Shown: positions 2,642-58,178 of the stretch, piece after piece
Numbering within the stretch: position 1 is the stretch's first letter
Layout of the letters: each line of letters opens with the position of its first letter
Source of the DNA: Terriglobia bacterium
GTDB taxonomy: Bacteria > Acidobacteriota > Terriglobia > Bryobacterales > Bryobacteraceae
Length of the DNA: 64,000 nt
Reading direction: 5' to 3'
Assembly (NCBI GenBank): GCA_963799755.1
Contig: CAWCYQ010000015.1
Span: 11,139 to 75,138, forward strand
Translations under genes and position numbers: made by a program
The notes under the pieces: generated by a model
Told to the model about the DNA's origin: nothing
Seen by the model: the letters and a program-made list of their open reading frames with translations, nothing else
Databases searched by the model: none

Positions 2642-4570
2642 GTGACTGAGAAAGAACGATTCGGCAGATACGAGATCATCCGCAAGCTCGGCGGCGGCAT
2701 GTCGGATGTCTATCTCGCCCGCGATTCAGTTCTCGGCCGTCCGGTGGTCCTCAAAACCATAAAGAACTCGGATGATGTCTCGACGCAAATGGTCATCGAA
2801 GCCGAGAAGCGGGGTGTCCGCATTCAACGGCAGCTTGCCGGCTGCGAGCGCATACTCGATATCTACGAATCGGGTGAGCAGGACGGCAGCTTCTTCGCAG
2901 TGATGGAGTATTTTCCGGGCCGCACACTGGCGCAGATCCTGGCAGTCGAACGACGGCTTGACGCCAGACGCGCCGCGCGTTATGCCGCGGAAATTTGTAG
3001 CCAGTTGCGCATCCTGCATGGATTCGTGTCCCCGGAAGATGCGCGCAAGACGGCGGTCGTCCACGGCGACATCAAGCCCTCTAACATTCAGATCGGCGCA
3101 AACGACCAACTGAGAATCCTCGATTTCGGAATCGCCAAATTGATCACCTCGGGCCGTGACCTGACACGTCATCAGTTAGGTAGCCCCGGCTACTGCTCGC
3201 CCGAGCGATTGCGCGATTCCCAGGTGGATGTACACGCGGATATCTGGGCAACAGGCGTCTGCCTCTATGAAATGCTCGCCGGTTCGCCGCCTTTCGAGGC
3301 GCAAGATACCCGTAAACTCGAAGAACTGATCCAGTCTCGAAAGCCGGTGCCCGTTCTGCCGGATGATTGTCCGGTCGAGCTGAATCAGATCGTCGCCAAG
3401 GCTTTAGCACCCAACCTGAGCTGCCGTTACTCATCGGCCGAAGCCCTCGAAGCGGATCTGCTGGCCTTTCTGGAGAACCGGGTCACGCAAGCTGCACAAG
3501 AGAAAACCCCGCACAGGAAAGCGAATGCCACGATTTTCCGCCGCCCCGCTCTGCTGCCTCTGAAGCCTGCGGCGTCCGCTCCTGCCAGGCGAGTGCGTCT
3601 GCGATTCAGCAAGAAGAATGCTCCCTCTGATGTGACGAATCTCGCGATTGCGCTTCTCGCCGGCGTTCTCTGCGGTCTGGTGTTGTTTCTCCCGGCTACA
3701 CGGTATTTCGAGTTGCGAGAAATCCGGCGGAGCCTGGTGCAGCGTAAGGACTACATATTGCTGCCCGCCTCCGTCCTCGCGGCCGACTGGCAGAATTACC
3801 AGACTGTCAAGCATCGTGGCCTCTGGTGGCCTCGCTTGTCGCCCAACGATGACATGGAGGACGCTTTTCGGGCCAATCTCCTCGATTCCGCCAACAACCT
3901 GATTGGCCGCTTCCGGCGCAGTTCAGACGACCAGCCCGCAAATTTCGACTGGTCCCGCGCGCGCTTGTGCCTGCTCTATGCTCTCGAGATCGATTCGCTG
4001 AACACGCGAGCCCGCGGCCAACTGCATCTCTGCGACGGCTATCTCAGCCTTGAGAATGTTCACCAGGCGACCCCTGCTTACACCATTGAAGCTTTTCATC
4101 GTGCCTCGGCCCTGATCCCTCGTTCACCCGATCCTCACCTCGGACTGGCACGCGCTTATGTATATACCGTTCGGAACGTGGGTATGGCGCTCGCCGAGTT
4201 CCATCAAGCCGCGCAGCTTGGCTATACGCTCGGCCCCCGCGAGAGGGAGCAGGAAGCCGACGGATACCTGGGACGCGCTGAAGCGGAGCTCAATCTTGCC
4301 AGGCGTGCTCCGCCAGATGCCAGGCCGGACGCCGCCCGTTGGCTCCGTCTGGCTCGAGGAGATATGGATCGGGCGCAAAATTTATATGAGCCTATCGCCG
4401 GCTTCAGCCACGTCGAAGTAAGTTTGGAGCAGGTTTACCGCGATCAAGACGATCAGGCGAAGCTGGAGCAGGCGCTTTTCACTCCGGCGCCAACTCCGGC
4501 TCCGAAAACACACCTCGTCTTGCTCAAGGCGCGTTTCATTAAACGGCCGGTTTCTTTCCGATGGCGGTAA
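2642..4570 (+). CDS. Hanks-type Ser/Thr protein kinase with a TM segment and a TPR-like C-terminal domain
   Basis: Motifs GGGMSDVYLA (P-loop), VVLK, HGDIKPSNI (catalytic loop), DFGIAK and SPGYCSPE. TM segment LAIALLAGVLCGLVLFL. AAGGAGG lies 8 nt upstream of the GTG start. Confidence 0.85.
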   Translation: MTEKERFGRYEIIRKLGGGMSDVYLARDSVLGRPVVLKTIKNSDDVSTQMVIEAEKRGVRIQRQLAGCERILDIYESGEQDGSFFAVMEYFPGRTLAQILAVERRLDARRAARYAAEICSQLRILHGFVSPEDARKTAVVHGDIKPSNIQIGANDQLRILDFGIAKLITSGRDLTRHQLGSPGYCSPERLRDSQVDVHADIWATGVCLYEMLAGSPPFEAQDTRKLEELIQSRKPVPVLPDDCPVELNQIVAKALAPNLSCRYSSAEALEADLLAFLENRVTQAAQEKTPHRKANATIFRRPALLPLKPAASAPARRVRLRFSKKNAPSDVTNLAIALLAGVLCGLVLFLPATRYFELREIRRSLVQRKDYILLPASVLAADWQNYQTVKHRGLWWPRLSPNDDMEDAFRANLLDSANNLIGRFRRSSDDQPANFDWSRARLCLLYALEIDSLNTRARGQLHLCDGYLSLENVHQATPAYTIEAFHRASALIPRSPDPHLGLARAYVYTVRNVGMALAEFHQAAQLGYTLGPREREQEADGYLGRAEAELNLARRAPPDARPDAARWLRLARGDMDRAQNLYEPIAGFSHVEVSLEQVYRDQDDQAKLEQALFTPAPTPAPKTHLVLLKARFIKRPVSFRWR

Positions 4571-46402: not shown

Positions 46403-47083
46403 TTACAGCCGGGGCTCCGAGTGAGCTGTTTCGGCGGCTTGAGCGGCGCCGTCGAGCAGGTTGGAGTGAAGTAGAAAAAACGAAGCCAAGGCGTCCGGGT
46501 TGTCGAATTTCTGTTGGGCCAGCATGCGTTTGAACTGTCCCATATTGCTAGCCTTGGCGGGAGGCTCGGTTTGCGCCTGTTCGGTTTGGCGGCGATCCTC
46601 TTGCAATTCGCGGAGTTCGGCCATGTCCTTCTCGCGCTGGCGCTGCAGGCGGCCTTCCTGGATTTGGAGGTTGCGCAGCGGCTTCTGATATTGCAGGAAA
46701 GTTTCGAGGTCGATGCGGGCGGAGAGGACGGCCGGGTCGAGTTCTTCGAATTGCGGGGCGAATTCGTCACGGCCACGAGCATAGATCGCCATTTCGAGAC
46801 CGGGGATGCGCTGCAGACGCCATTGGATATCGGCGAGGGATTGGACTAACTCGCGTTCGCGAACACCGATGGGGTGAAACTCGCTTTCGTAAGCGAAGAG
46901 ATGCTGCTGGTAAGCCTCGGCGTCATCGGAGGGCAGCAGAACGGTGCGGCCGGTTAAGCCGGTTTTGACGGCATTCATCGAGGAAGTGACTTTACCTTCG
47001 GCGCTGCGCGGGCCGGTAGAGAGTTGGGCATTCGCACGGTTGGCAACGATGCGAGATTCGGAAACAGGCGATTCGGATTTCAT
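46403..47083 (-). CDS. hypothetical protein
   Basis: Clean 226-aa ORF with ordinary composition. I recognise no motif. Confidence 0.5.
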   Translation of the reverse strand: MKSESPVSESRIVANRANAQLSTGPRSAEGKVTSSMNAVKTGLTGRTVLLPSDDAEAYQQHLFAYESEFHPIGVRERELVQSLADIQWRLQRIPGLEMAIYARGRDEFAPQFEELDPAVLSARIDLETFLQYQKPLRNLQIQEGRLQRQREKDMAELRELQEDRRQTEQAQTEPPAKASNMGQFKRMLAQQKFDNPDALASFFLLHSNLLDGAAQAAETAHSEPRL

Positions 47084-47170
47084 GAGTGGGCGGTGCTCCT
47101 GGCCACAGGAGATAGCACACTAAGACTCGAAAACGAACTTTGGCGTAGCGTGAAACAGGGTTAAATCGCA

Positions 47171-47211
47171 TGGAATGAACGAGTAGGCGATATTTCGTCG
47201 AGCTGTGAACT
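47171..47211. repeat. left half of a repeated intergenic element, interrupted by the IS110 element
   Basis: About 33 of 41 positions are identical to 51681-51721 in the same orientation. Confidence 0.6.
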
Positions 47212-47214
47212 TCC

Positions 47215-47452
47215 ATGTCGGGGCGGCGCAACGGGGGATGAAAACGGTATCGAGGAGCGATAGGCTGCTGGATGCCGGGAGCGGACAGAGGCCGTTATCA
47301 GTCTGGAGCTAGCAGCCCGCTTGTGAACTTGGCCCGGGCGCCGCAGTTTGTGCACGGCACAACGGATTGTGGCCTCTGCCGCGAGGCGGAGAGCACGTGA
47401 AGGAAAGTCGACGGTTTTCCAGGCGTCCCTTACTCGCGGCAAAGGAGGCGAT
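47215..47452 (+). ncRNA. candidate IS110 bridge RNA region (left-end non-coding)
   Basis: Its position upstream of the transposase is as in IS110-group elements. It contains tgtgaactt (47322-47330), identical to the 9 nt abutting the insertion point (47204-47212). No fold was computed. Confidence 0.3.
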
Positions 47453-48725
47453 ATGAAATTACTGTACCGCTGCTGTGCCGGATTGGATATTCACCGCGAC
47501 ACAGTCAGCGCGTGTGTGCGACGGCGCGTCCGCGGACAAGCGGAGGCGGCCATCGAAGAACAAGTGTTTGGCACCTTCACGCAAGAGTTGGAGCGCTTGC
47601 GTAACTGGCTGAAGAAGCATAAGGTCCGGCAAGTAGCTATGGAGTCGACGGGTGTGTACTGGATTCCGATCTGGAACGTACTCGAACGGAACAGCAGGTT
47701 CACTCTGACGTTGGTGAACCCAGCAACGGTGCGCGCTCTACAAGGTCAGAAGACCGATCGCATCGATGCGCGACGTATTGCCGAGTATCTGCAATACGGG
47801 CTGTTGCGGGGCAGTTTTATTCCACCGCCGCCCATCCGTCACTTGCGTGAGCTGACACGCATGCGAGTGCATATCCAGCAAGACCGCAACCGAGTGGTGA
47901 ACCGCATCGCGCGGCTACTGGAGACCGTAAACATCAAGCTGGCCTCGGTGGCTTCCCACATCGTGGGCACCAGTGGCATGGCAATGTTGCGGCTGCTGGC
48001 CAGCGGTATGCGCGATCCAGAACGATTGGCCGAATGCGCCCGGGGTCAGATGCGGATCAAGATCCCGCACTGATACTGGCGCTGGACGGCAGGCCGGACG
48101 AGCATTTCCGCTGGATGCTTGCGCAACTACTGGCCAAACTGGATCGCTTAGGCGAGGAACGGGCGCGAGTCGATGCGCGGCTTCAGGAACTGGCACTCCC
48201 CTTTGCCGATGTTGTACGTCGACTCTGCACGATCCCCGGCGTTGATAGCACGACCGCGCTGGTGCTGCTGGCCGAGTTCGGCACGGATATGACCCAGTTC
48301 CCGACAACGGCTCGCTTGGCGAGTTGGGCCGGGCTGTGTGCGGGAAACGCAGAGAGCGCAGGCAAGCGTTTTTCCGGACGGACGCGCAAAGGCGACCGTT
48401 ATGTACGGCGCAGCTTAGTGCAGAGTGCCTGGGCGGCGTCGCGCACCAAGGATTGTTTCCTGGCGCCTTATTCTTTCGCACTGCACAGCGCCGTGGCTTA
48501 AAGAAAGCTGCTGTCGCTGTGGCGCACCGGATATTGATGATTGCCTGGCACATCCTGGCCGAAGAAGGCGTTGAATACTATGAGCGCGGCGGTGATCACT
48601 TCGATCGCGCAACCGGAAGCACCGCGCGCAAATTGACGCGCAGATTGGAGGCATTGGTACCAGGTGACGCTGCTGCGCAAGCTAAATCGCCACGCGTGTC
48701 CGAAACGCTTGGTGTGTACATCTGA
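47453..48725 (+). pseudogene. IS110-family transposase with two frame breaks (CCC 48064-48066, GG 48462-48463)
   Basis: DEDD_Tnp_IS110 N-domain (CAGLDIHRDTVSAC...VAMESTGVYWIPIWNVLE). Transposase_20 region (LCTIPGVDSTTALVLLAEFGTDMTQFPTTARLASWAGLCAGNAESAGKR). The tail RRGLKKAAVAVAHRILMIAWHIL is in a third frame. AAAGGAGG precedes the ATG at 47453. Confidence 0.85.
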
Positions 48726-48845
48726 ATGGAAGTGGTGTTGGAAGTGTATGGAGAAAAAAAAAGAGGAAGTGACCGAACTTCCGGGTTCCTGCGAAATCAA
48801 ACTGCAACGAGAAGTTATTAGGTTAGAGAAGTAGAGTTTTAAAGG

Positions 48846-51665
48846 ATGAACGGAATATGCAGATCGTTAGGACTGGCGTTTGTGGGATTGTCTGTGGGAG
48901 TTTTCGGGCAGACCATCGACCTGCCCACCAGTAAGCAGATTCTCCCTGCGGTTCCCGGCAGCCCACAACGAATCAATAGCCTGCCGATATCCGTGGCAGT
49001 GTCGCCGGACGGACGCTATGTGGTGACCGTGAACGCGGGTTACGGCACATTCGAATCGAAGTACATGCAATCGCTGGCGGTGCTCGATACGCGCACGGGG
49101 ACAATCGAAGATTTCCCGGACGACCGTACTCCGCTGAAGGCAAAGCAGACGTTGTACTCAGGGCTGGCGTTCAGCCTCGATGGCAGTCATGTTTATGCCA
49201 GTATGGCTTCGCTCGCCGATCCACTGGGAAAGCACGAGGGTGACGCTGGCAGCGGAGTAGTCGTGTATGGCTTCCGTGAAGGAAAGATTGCTCCTGAGAG
49301 ATTGATGAAGATTCCCCTGCAGCAGCTTGCGGCAGGGAGGAAGACCCTGGTTGCAGGAGCGGAGAGCGACAAGGGTGTGCCGTATCCGGCAGCGATTGCG
49401 GTCATCGGGGATTCGAGCTCGGAGAAGCTGCTGGTGGCCGATAATCTCTCCGACGACGTGCTGCTGATGAACGCAGAGACAGGCGCGATTGAGCACAGAT
49501 TCGATCTGGCAGAGAATGATGCGGTGCCTTCGACGTATCCCATTGCGCTGAGCGTTGCGCAGGATGAGTCACGGGCGTTTGTGGCGCTGTGGAATGCGTC
49601 CGAAGCGGTTGAACTCGACCTGAAGAAACGGATCGTGGGGCGCAGGCTGGCACTCCTGAAGCCGGAGAGTGCAATTACGGCGGGCTCCCATCCCTGCGCG
49701 ATGGAGATTGCACGAGACGGCAAAACGATGTACATCGCGCTGGCGAACCGCGACGCTGTGGCGGCTGTAAACCTTGCCGGGAACCAGTTTTCGCTAAAAG
49801 GATATTTCGATACCCGGCTGCCGCATCAGAGCTACTTTGGCGCCGAGCCGGAGGCGCTGGCATTGTCCGCGGACGGGGCGCACCTCTACGTAGCCGATGC
49901 AATCACTGACGCGATTGCGGTAATGGATACAAGGAAGCTGACGGCGAAGGCAGCGAAAAAAGGAATGGCGGAGCCGATGGGTTTTGTACCGACCGAGTGG
50001 ATGCCGATGTCGTTGGCGTTCAGCGGAGGCAAACTCTACGTAGCGACGGCTAAGGGCAAAGGAACCGGACCGAACAATCTCGCACAGCGCCAGGCGGACT
50101 GGCAGAAGAAGCAGCGAACGAAGCCGAGTTCGTCGACCTATATCGCCACCCTTCTCTATGGCTCACTGGCGGTGCTCGATACAAAAGCGATGGAGAAGGA
50201 ACTGTCGAAATGGACCGGAGAGGTCGTCGAGTCGAACCGGATGAAAGCGGCGGAGGAGAAGATCCAGTTTGCCGCGGGTGGAGAAAGCCGTATCAAACAT
50301 GTGATCTACATCATCAAGGAGAACCGCACCTACGATCAGGTTTTCGGCGATTTGCGAAAAGATGGAAAGCCGGTGGGTAATGGCGATCCGAGCCTGACCA
50401 TGTACGGTGAGGAGATCACGCCAAACCAACATGCTCTGGCGCTGCGATTCGGCGTGCTCGATAACTTCTATGATTCGGGCGAGGTCTCCGGAGACGGACA
50501 TGTGTGGTCAACTGCAGCGATTGGAACCGACTACCTGGAGAAGACATGGCAACAAGGCTATCGGGGCGGTCAGCGCACCTATGATTACGAAGGCGTAGTA
50601 GCAGAGGGATACCCTCTGTTGCAGAAAATTCCGGACGTCAATGAGCCTGCGAGCGGATATCTGTGGGGCAATCTGGCGCGGCACGGCAAAACCTACTACC
50701 ACTTCGGCGAATTCATCTCCTCAGAGTTCTGCGATGTGAAGAAGAGCACAAGTTCGCAGGAAGGTCCGCTACTCGGGGGATTGCACTGTGACCGGCCGGC
50801 GATTCAGCCGGGAGAGGCGATCCCTGAGCAGTGGGGCGGCGGAGTGAACAAGTGGCCATGGGCGATTCCGCTCTTGGGGAGGAATATCGCAACCAAGTCA
50901 GAATTAGTGGGGCACTTCGCTCCGGAGGCGCCGGACTTCAACCTGCGGGTGCCGGACCAGATTCGGGTAGAGGTTTTTCTGCGGCACCTCAAGGAATGGG
51001 AAGCGAACCGCGAGAGCGGCAGGGACACGATGCCCAACTTCATCATCTTGCGCTTGAGCGACGATCATACGGCGGGAACGAAACCGGGAGGACCCACGCC
51101 ACGGGCGTCGGTTGCGGATAACGATCTTGCGATCGGGCGTGCCGTGGAGGCCGTGTCTCATTCGCCGTATTGGGACGACACGGCGTTCTTTATCCTCGAG
51201 GACGATGCACAGAACGGAGCCGATCACGTGGATGCGCATCGGAGCCTGGCATTGGTGATCAGTAAGTACTCTCCTCGGCGTGCGGATGGCGGCGTCTTTG
51301 TGGACAGCCGCTTTTATTCGACAGTGAGCGTGGTACGAACCATGGAGACGCTGCTCGGCCTGCCTCCGATGAATAACAACGATGCGTTCAGTTCGCTGAT
51401 TGGATCGCTGTTCACCGGGCCGGGAGACCAGGCTCCGTTCCCGGCGGACTACCGGAATCGCGACGATGGGTTGATCTATACAGCAAATCGTGAAAACGCG
51501 CCGGGCGCAAAGGAGTCGAGCAGGATGGACTTTCGTCATGCTGACCGGGCTGACGCGCAGAAGCTGAACGTGATTCTCTGGAAGGATGCAATGGGCGACA
51601 AGCCTGTTCCTCCGATGCTGTTGGAAAAGAGAAAAAAGGCGCGAAAGGATGATGACGGAGATTAA
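48846..51665 (+). CDS. secreted beta-propeller (YncE/lactonase-like repeats) fused to a phosphoesterase (AcpA/PLC family) domain
   Basis: Signal peptide. Repeated SPDGRYVV / SLDGSHVYA / ARDGKTMYIA / SADGAHLYVA blades. Phosphoesterase motifs follow: HVIYIIKENRTYDQVFGDL and EDDAQNGADHVDAHRS. Confidence 0.8.
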   Translation: MNGICRSLGLAFVGLSVGVFGQTIDLPTSKQILPAVPGSPQRINSLPISVAVSPDGRYVVTVNAGYGTFESKYMQSLAVLDTRTGTIEDFPDDRTPLKAKQTLYSGLAFSLDGSHVYASMASLADPLGKHEGDAGSGVVVYGFREGKIAPERLMKIPLQQLAAGRKTLVAGAESDKGVPYPAAIAVIGDSSSEKLLVADNLSDDVLLMNAETGAIEHRFDLAENDAVPSTYPIALSVAQDESRAFVALWNASEAVELDLKKRIVGRRLALLKPESAITAGSHPCAMEIARDGKTMYIALANRDAVAAVNLAGNQFSLKGYFDTRLPHQSYFGAEPEALALSADGAHLYVADAITDAIAVMDTRKLTAKAAKKGMAEPMGFVPTEWMPMSLAFSGGKLYVATAKGKGTGPNNLAQRQADWQKKQRTKPSSSTYIATLLYGSLAVLDTKAMEKELSKWTGEVVESNRMKAAEEKIQFAAGGESRIKHVIYIIKENRTYDQVFGDLRKDGKPVGNGDPSLTMYGEEITPNQHALALRFGVLDNFYDSGEVSGDGHVWSTAAIGTDYLEKTWQQGYRGGQRTYDYEGVVAEGYPLLQKIPDVNEPASGYLWGNLARHGKTYYHFGEFISSEFCDVKKSTSSQEGPLLGGLHCDRPAIQPGEAIPEQWGGGVNKWPWAIPLLGRNIATKSELVGHFAPEAPDFNLRVPDQIRVEVFLRHLKEWEANRESGRDTMPNFIILRLSDDHTAGTKPGGPTPRASVADNDLAIGRAVEAVSHSPYWDDTAFFILEDDAQNGADHVDAHRSLALVISKYSPRRADGGVFVDSRFYSTVSVVRTMETLLGLPPMNNNDAFSSLIGSLFTGPGDQAPFPADYRNRDDGLIYTANRENAPGAKESSRMDFRHADRADAQKLNVILWKDAMGDKPVPPMLLEKRKKARKDDDGD

Positions 51666-51680
51666 AGGGGCCCAAACGTG

Positions 51681-51760
51681 TGGAATGGAGGAGTAGGCGA
51701 TATTTTGCCGAGCCGTGACTATGATTTGCGAAAATCCGGTTTGCCGATGATTTAGGACCT
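51681..51760. repeat. uninterrupted paralogue of the element targeted by the IS110 copy
   Basis: 51681-51721 matches 47171-47211. 51727-51756 resembles 48790-48822, which lies to the right of the IS. Confidence 0.55.
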
Positions 51761-51776
51761 CTCCAATGTGCGCGGT

Positions 51777-57741: not shown

Positions 57742-58178
57742 ATGGATAAGAAACGAGTGTTGATTCTCTGCACGGGCAATTCGGCGCGGAGCCAAATGGC
57801 CGAGGGGCTGCTGCGACATGATGCGGGTGATGTATTCGAGGTCGAAAGCGCCGGCACCAATCCCGGCACTGTGCGACCCGAAGCCATTGCCGCGATGGAT
57901 GAGCTGGGGATCGACATTGGCAAGCATCGCTCAAAACATGTGAATGAATTTGCTGGTCAGCATTTTGATTACGTCATCACCGTATGCGACAACGCGAAAG
58001 AGAGTTGCCCACATTTCTGGGCGCGGTGGAACGGCTCCACCATAACTTCGATGATCCTCCCCCGGCTTCCCATGGAACGGAGGAAGAACGCATGGAGATC
58101 TTTCGCCGTGTACGCGATGGGCTACGGGCATATTTAGCTCAGTGCGTGCACAGCGTTGACGGCCCACGAACCCCCTGA
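57742..58178 (+). pseudogene. arsC: arsenate reductase (LMW-PTP / thioredoxin-coupled type), frame break at CCC 58008-58010
   Basis: Motifs [17 protein letters not shown] and [14 protein letters not shown]. After adding one C the frame continues as [16 protein letters not shown]...[13 protein letters not shown], ending at 58178. Confidence 0.8.

Follow-up and report, generated by a model that had tools for sequence, protein, structure and literature searches.

Where does an insertion sequence (IS) of the IS110 family begin and end in the genome of a Terriglobia bacterium, and what kind of site has it entered? The question is raised by a stretch of 64,000 nucleotides (nt) of GenBank assembly GCA_963799755.1 (contig CAWCYQ010000015.1, positions 11,139 to 75,138 of the forward strand), hereafter the window, to which all coordinates refer. 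An earlier note, made from the sequence alone, had proposed that the element lies in one copy of a repeated intergenic sequence and that both of its ends can be read directly against a second, unoccupied copy at 51.7 kb. In our analysis, the left end can be read from the repeat and the right end cannot. The reading that we consider likely is that an IS110-group element, extending from 47209 to approximately 48772, was integrated by bridge-RNA-guided recombination at the edge of the conserved upstream element of a multi-copy gene, here called P0001.

The assignment to the IS110 family, already made in the earlier note, is borne out by the protein domains. The gene of the element encodes the N-terminal DEDD (RuvC-like) domain, recognised by PF01548 (E = 5e-25, profile positions 1-153 of 155), and the C-terminal Tnp domain (Transposase_20), recognised by PF02371 (E = 1.2e-23, profile positions 2-86 of 87). 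The model NF033542, 'IS110 family RNA-guided transposase', gave 129.3 bits with the N-terminal piece alone of this split gene, its cut-off of 140 applying to the whole protein. The window element is an IS110-family (IS110 group) insertion sequence of ordinary type. Its best delimitation is 47209-48772 on the forward strand (1564 bp), in which the left end is firm and the right end is a best estimate within 48772-48792. The non-coding left end (47209-47452, forward strand) is 244 nt long, longer than the right non-coding part (at most ~50-100 nt), and is conserved across relatives, both in alignments and in RNAalifold with 77 sequences; it is a candidate bridge RNA. The measured size of about 1.56 kb and the 244-nt left end agree with the ~1.57 kb and 240 bp proposed previously. 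The IS is present in a single copy in its own genome, as determined by blastn of 47101-48900 against the 49 contigs (6.03 Mb). In what follows this genome is G000, other G numbers denote genomes of the genus, and L numbers denote fetched loci of relatives.

To the left of the element lies P0001 (46403-47083, reverse strand), an open reading frame of 226 amino acids (aa) transcribed away from the IS. It belongs to an uncharacterised multi-copy family, for which no match was found in Pfam, NCBIfam or PHROG and the nearest ESM Atlas clusters are named 'hypothetical protein'; of 80 other genomes of the genus, 76 contain paralogues, usually with ~6 matches each. A conserved upstream element of ~125 bp (47084-47208) begins at the P0001 start codon and ends in GTGA (47205-47208), which forms the left half of the target of the IS. 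An nhmmer census of G000 gave eight full copies of this upstream element, one partial copy and two marginal fragments, and the distal end was GTGA in 9/9 of the full and partial copies. GTGA is followed by C or T in each of the eight empty copies, and by A in a single case, the occupied copy. Nothing is conserved past GTGA among the copies of G000, where the other seven full copies share no sequence. In the same way, the 108 bases up to 47208 matched by blastn seven further places in G000 plus the 51.7-kb copy, and all of these eight matches stop at or before query position 108, i.e. 47208.

Each of the eight full copies was either a seed taken directly in front of the P0001 start codon or a match to that region, and at least five of them adjoin a paralogue detectable at the DNA level. 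What had been called a 'repeated intergenic element' is thus conserved sequence in front of the genes of a multi-copy family, and the IS stands at its outer edge, not within it. The earlier claim of an insertion into a repeat copy therefore holds in that the insertion is at a repeated sequence, but the repeat is not split, the IS following its terminal GTGA. The upstream element may serve the family as a common promoter or leader, or may be the signal of a regulon. We also considered a REP-like (repetitive extragenic palindromic) unit, dispersed independently of the gene family and serving as a landing pad; the full copies, tied as they are to the P0001 upstream region, do not fit it. The eight copies of the 226-aa family in G000 are located in the window (46403-47208, with the upstream element) and on contigs C8, C23, C30, C31, C38, C39 and C48, and the blocks of the ~125-bp element before each copy read ATAGCACAC, CGAAAACGAACTT, GGTTAAA, TGGAATGA and GGCGATATTTCG..GTGA.

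The similarity between the left flank and the 51.7-kb region had been given as 33 of 41 positions (47171-47211 against 51681-51721), which is exact; up to the junction it is 33/38 (47171-47208 against 51681-51718), with the next three bases mismatched. It is highly significant, with a Smith-Waterman score of 51 compared to 13.2 ± 2.3 for shuffles (0/2000 reaching the score). The similarity had been said to break at about 47212; it ends at 47208/47209, the eight other blastn matches all stopping at or before 47208.

The position of the crossover was read from relatives of the element, of which 22 loci came from a protein-seeded scan of genome contigs and 80 from a metagenome scan. A genus-level DNA search gave a match to the element in 15 of 41 genomes, and G019 carries an 84%-identical copy with an internal deletion, also adjoining ...CTGTGA. 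Three metagenome-assembled genomes contain 2-5 near-identical IS copies each (L032-35 with L043, five copies; L039-41, three copies; L036-37, two copies), the identical part being 1675-1679, 1672-1676 and 1661 bp long. In all three families, the identical part invariably has (y)yTGT[G/C]A and then A[CT]G.. at its start and GTTTTCGAAGGA at its end. The flank that follows this terminus varies: CTGG, TCGG, CCGG, AATT and TCGG in one family, CCGGG twice and ATGAC in the second, and AAG and GAG in the third. The constant ends of the relatives, together with the empty repeat copies ending at GTGA, place the crossover directly after GT[G/C]A, with a 2-nt core [G/C]A common to target and element; the first IS base in the window is therefore 47209. 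In the relatives the same 2-nt core stands at both junctions. In the window, GA is firm at 47207-47208, where the comparisons of relatives' copies suggest it to be the left copy of the core, and a second GA at 48771-48772 is the putative right copy. The exact termini of the earlier note are not those of these other copies of the IS; this outcome, which the note itself had named as a refutation, concerns the termini and leaves its general idea of an IS110 insertion at a repeat unaffected.

Two further observations were made on these termini. In several metagenome contigs (L044 at 3120-3200, L054, L057, L063, L065, L075 and L086) two copies stand end to end, a right end followed directly by a left end, or else a contig of ~1.67 kb joins up with itself; the abutting ends read ...CGAAGGA|A[CT]G..., with one GA in common, and these contigs are tandem IS copies or assembled circle junctions. 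In L037 (3880-3930), the right terminus is duplicated in tandem over 21 bp (GAGAGAGAAGTTTTCGAAGGA twice).

The neighbourhood of P0001 is a recurrent one for these relatives. Among 56 distinct left flanks of at least 600 nt, a P0001-like gene was found in 16, and in 15 of these it is divergent, starting 92-352 nt from the IS junction. As there are only ~8 such genes per genome, 16/56 flanks correspond to a strong preference of this IS clade for the P0001-family upstream element.

The 244-nt left end contains, on the forward strand, a target-binding loop (47290-47334) closed by a stem (47290-47294 with 47330-47334) that carries compensatory changes in RNAalifold of the 77 distinct sequences: stem column 97/141 is GC in 37, GU in 26 and AU in 6 of them, and column 98/140 is CG in 69 and UA in 6. 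The 5' strand of the loop (X, 9 nt, ..CAGUC, 47295-47303) is complementary to GA plus the right flank. A hairpin (47304-47319) separates it from the 3' strand (10 nt, 47320-47329), whose first part (Y, cuuGUGA, 47320-47326) corresponds in the same sense to the left flank with the GA core, and whose last 3 nt (the Y extension, 47327-47329) have the same sense as the first IS bases. These correspondences were evaluated by permuting the flanks among elements, the window being excluded. Y against the left flank gave 366 identities compared to 332.2 ± 5.5 (0/5000 permutations, n = 63), the extension against the first IS bases 132 identities compared to 93.6 ± 4.2 (0/5000, n = 50), and X against the right flank 129 Watson-Crick pairs compared to 110.4 ± 6.7 (20/5000, n = 55); the sequences in these tests are related, so that the counts overstate independence. 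Register-shift controls at -2, -1, +1 and +2 gave no significant result. Moreover, GUCA is found in the guide of every listed element that has a GTCA junction and a recognised Y guide, i.e. in seven rows representing four distinct insertions (L039-41, L087, L088, L093 and L122, with one flank common to L041, L087, L088 and L122). The loop strands covary with the flanks, as a bridge-RNA internal loop pairing with both target halves would.

RNAalifold also gave a second, multi-branched loop (forward strand, outer stem 47338-47342 with 47422-47426). Its 3' strand contains GAAGGA (47399-47404, forward strand), in the same sense as the right terminus of the relatives, whose right ends finish CGAAGGA. 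GAAGGA is nearly invariant in the 77 sequences and may read the right terminus of the family as a left-donor guide, a role suggested by the match itself, since both partners are invariant and offer no covariation. By eye, the tip of the left end (47209-47225, A[CT]GCCnCAnGGCGG) resembles, in the same sense, an RNA segment GCGCCCGCAG..GCACGG (47338-47362) that is also present in relatives; this same-sense likeness does not fit the antisense right-donor guide that would be expected. An insertion of ~64 nt is present in the donor-loop region, between the hairpins of the second loop, in the Bryobacteraceae relatives L042 and L050.

At the right end of the window copy, the last stretch before the proposed terminus (48672-48772, forward strand) is a 3' tail with no match to relatives, and their terminus GTTTTCGAAGGA is absent from the window. 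Alignment of 48672-48772 with the right ends of five relatives gave scores mostly in the shuffle range, the best being that of L033 (18/500 shuffles), which does not cover the terminus. Searched in 121 other genomes of the genus, the tail gave one marginal 28-nt match (G102), judged from its context to be due to chance, and it had no match in the ~110 fetched loci. As the tail is unmatched in relatives, the right terminus and the right-hand GA were placed with a family-derived pattern, GAAG.?GA[CT][CT]G[AG], framed after seeing the data, which occurs once, at 48766 (567/100000 shuffles). The string found there, GAAGTGA|CCGA (48766-48776), fits the family terminus followed by the right-flank consensus, bar one extra base. 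Position 48772 is therefore the best placement of the right end, uncertain within 48772-48792.

The word gaacttcc (GAACTTCC) does occur at both junctions, as had been noticed, at 47207-47214 and 48775-48782. Taken as an 8-bp target duplication, it does not agree with the 2-nt [G/C]A core of the relatives. With the crossover after GTGA, the left gaacttcc is the core plus the first six IS bases, and the second copy (48775-48782, forward strand) lies in the right flank, 3 nt past the element, where it is possibly the remnant of a junction at which a right end abutted a left end. The hairpin described at the right end exists as a perfect 6-bp inverted repeat, ggaagt/acttcc (48765-48770 and 48777-48782), but is unremarkable, its fold of -8.4 kcal/mol comparing with -4.53 ± 2.19 for shuffles, 67/1000 of which are as good.

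Beyond the right end, a resemblance to the 51.7-kb copy had been taken as the resumption of the repeat at about 48790. The comparison of 48783-48845 with 51721-51776 gave a score of 14, compared to 11.7 ± 2.1 for shuffles (356/2000 reaching it), and the exact strings that had been put forward (48790-48822 against 51727-51756) share one 7-mer only, their score being reached by 77/2000 shuffles. This 7-mer lies at +9 from GTGA in the 51.7-kb copy and at +18 in the window. The supposed unoccupied target is a partial copy of the upstream element, comprising its distal 53 bp and ending in GTGA (51666-51718; nhmmer HMM positions 74-126 of 126, E = 1.3e-6), located between convergent genes, and its right-flank resemblance to the window is that of chance. 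From 48793 on, the window is homologous (81%) to the sequence preceding the orthologous 939-aa gene of G041, which contains no copy of the repeat; leftward of 48793 the homology to G041 is not significant (440/2000 shuffles reaching the score). No syntenic empty site was found in the genomes searched, of which the closest, G041, splits the right-hand gene and the best left-hand match over two contigs. The best unoccupied match to the window's own guides in G000 lies on contig C38.

The transposase gene (47453-48725, forward strand) consists of three frame pieces (47453-48073, 48034-48501 and 48324-48725), so that the frame is broken as assembled, a point absent from the earlier note. Over the first 205 residues the protein is 87-89% identical to intact relatives of 465-497 aa. 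Compared to three intact relatives, the window lacks single bases near 48062-48063 and 48463-48464, with further losses at 48607/48612/48618 (net -3) and 48651-48657 (net -2), and it has an in-frame 6-nt difference at 47688-47693. All of the frame-affecting differences are 1-nt losses (one alignment merges two adjacent ones as 2 nt), and a GATC or CCWGG site is at most 2 nt away from three of the four indel clusters, a result reached in 61/20000 random placements. Elsewhere in the window, arsC is broken at a C-run (58005-58015). As assembled, the window copy can encode no full-length recombinase and lacks the family right terminus; unless its 1-nt deletions arose in the assembly, it is therefore probably unable to move.

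Taken together, these data would be accounted for by the following mechanism. The target site would be GT-GA|yyG, the last bases of the conserved ~125-bp element before the multi-copy 226-aa gene, and the 244-nt left end would encode the guide RNA. In the first internal loop, the 3' strand (cuuGUGA, 47320-47326) would read the left flank together with the GA core, both in the same sense, and the 5' strand (47295-47303) would be the complement of GA and the right flank. The three bases that follow GUGA would repeat the start of the element, as handshake guides do, and GAAGGA of the second loop would match the right-end terminus of the family. The empty site predicted by this model reads ...GAGCTGTGA|CCGAACTTCC..., with GCTGTGA to the left of the crossover. 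The recombination chemistry is presumably like that of IS621.

Several results weigh against this mechanism. Column by column, X and the right flank showed no pair that stood out, significance being reached by the summed permutation test alone, and many X-guide rows fit the right flank only after a 1-nt shift. The X guide of the window itself predicts a right flank CTGATAA, and CCGAACT is observed, with 3/7 positions matching. No right-donor guide was identified, the best antisense column reaching z = 2.5, and Rfam 15, which may hold no bridge-RNA model, gave no match at E <= 1 over 46800-49000. The last ~100 bp align with no relative's right end, the terminus and the right-hand GA being derived from a post-hoc pattern. 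Finally, the gaacttcc repeat is not explained by the termini of the family, and an 8-mer common to the 20-nt left junction and the shuffled right region was obtained in only 1482/100000 trials.

This last point also speaks for the delimitation of the earlier note, in which the element would extend from ~47212 to 48779-48782, gaacttcc, or a CT core within it, would be duplicated, and the 51.7-kb copy would be an intact empty site. The 8-mer at both junctions is rare by chance, CT is the core of IS621 in the passages describing it (PMC11208160), and the guide at 47322-47330 repeats the 9 nt tgtgaactt of the left junction. This identity of the guide past GUGA is, however, explained by the covariation with the element's first bases at 50 other junctions. 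The base after ...GAAGGA differs between copies of one family (c, t, c, a and t in L032-35 and L043), so that a core 3-4 nt further right would put variable bases in the donor. In addition, the empty repeat copies continue from GTGA with C or T and no conservation beyond, and the right flank resembles the 51.7-kb copy at chance level. We therefore regard this delimitation as very unlikely.

With the crossover placed after GTGA, there are still two ways in which the right half of the window copy could differ from what is assumed above. The true right end may have been lost by deletion, together with the C-terminal tail of the gene, in which case 48672-48792 would hold no terminus and the copy would be a fragment. 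The element is indeed ~100-110 bp shorter than its relatives (1564 bp compared to 1661-1679 bp), GTTTTCGAAGGA is absent, and the tail has no match in the 121 other genomes of the genus or the ~110 loci. Nevertheless, GAAGTGA|CCGA at 48766 fits the family terminus and the right-flank consensus bar its extra base, and the read-through frame keeps a Cys-rich stretch that, by eye, is loosely like the C-terminal CxxC...C tail of the relatives; we consider such a deletion unlikely. The other possibility concerns the gene: considering that the losses of single bases lie near GATC or CCWGG (three of four clusters, 61/20000 random placements) and that arsC is also broken at a C-run, consensus errors of a long-read assembly have to be considered alongside real decay, and the gene would then be intact in the organism. 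In its favour, every frame-affecting difference from the three relatives is a 1-nt loss; against it, no break is seen in the two large genes (939 and 835 aa) on either side, and base-calling errors cannot account for the missing right terminus and the shortened tail. We lean against this explanation while taking it seriously, and the link of the indels to GATC and CCWGG is a caution for every 'broken gene' or 'missing start' call in this assembly.

The integration at the edge of the P0001 upstream element can be compared with what has been described for other IS110-group elements. An intact relative of 465 aa aligns with the 328-aa recombinase chain of IS621 (8wt6) with E = 1.4e-14, i.e. with only distant similarity, and its ...NAESAGK stretch is aligned with ...YESGSS of IS621, in which the aligned serine would correspond to the catalytic S241. 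DEDD/RuvC-like and Tnp domains and a long non-coding left end are found in both. According to the passages of the IS621 reports (PMC11208160, PMC11208158), the left target guide (LTG) of that element comprises nt 50-58 and the right target guide (RTG) nt 77-80 on the 3' strand, followed by donor-pairing handshake bases. The loop of the window element resembles this arrangement in its succession of stem, guide, hairpin, guide and stem, in strands that read the target halves and overlap on a 2-nt core, and in the bases beside one guide that match the donor in handshake fashion (PMC11208160, PMC11208158). The differences are also several. The relatives of the present element are 450-497 aa long with a Cys-rich C-terminal tail, whereas the IS621 chain has 328 aa; the core is [G/C]A in this clade, compared to CT as given for IS621 (PMC11208160); and the second loop is multi-branched in this clade. 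The order of the guides is reversed with respect to the described IS621 arrangement, the same-sense left-flank guide being on the 3' strand and the antisense right-flank guide on the 5' strand, an exchange that would result if the recombination site had been turned around with respect to the genes for the RNA and the recombinase.

ISPpu10, an IS110-group element of Pseudomonas putida, likewise inserts into copies of one conserved intergenic sequence; its target is a hairpin-forming repeat, and recognition requires the DNA stem-loop (10.64898/2026.03.19.712850). In the present case the target is the outer edge of the upstream element of a gene family. In Acidobacteria, IS110-family genes have been reported in most genomes, with 20 in Ca. 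Solibacter usitatus (PMC3469429), in passages that give the genes without ends, targets or guide RNAs (PMC3469429).

The window IS is a new element of an already known IS110 kind, and alone this copy matters little, being probably a dead or mis-assembled example of it. The comparative junction set is more useful than the window copy itself, as a strong preference for the upstream element of the uncharacterised, multi-copy P0001 family emerges from it; from its ~100 junctions the natural target motif yyGT[G/C]A|yyG and a map of the guides were obtained for this acidobacterial IS110 clade. On this basis we put forward, as a tentative and still doubtful proposal, that the Terriglobia-type IS110 clade is a distinct architectural variant of the bridge recombinases, defined jointly by four features. 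These may be the [G/C]A core, a target-loop guide order that mirrors that of IS621, so that the recombination site faces the other way with respect to the genes for the RNA and the recombinase, a Cys-rich tail on a recombinase of 450-497 aa, and a natural preference for the distal edge of the P0001 upstream element (16/56 flanks). If the mirrored guide order and the GA core are new to the literature, the known design space of bridge RNAs would widen. If the preference for the upstream element is true, the P0001 element would be a 'safe harbour' for the IS, and the IS would in turn be a marker of an unrecognised regulon or promoter type.

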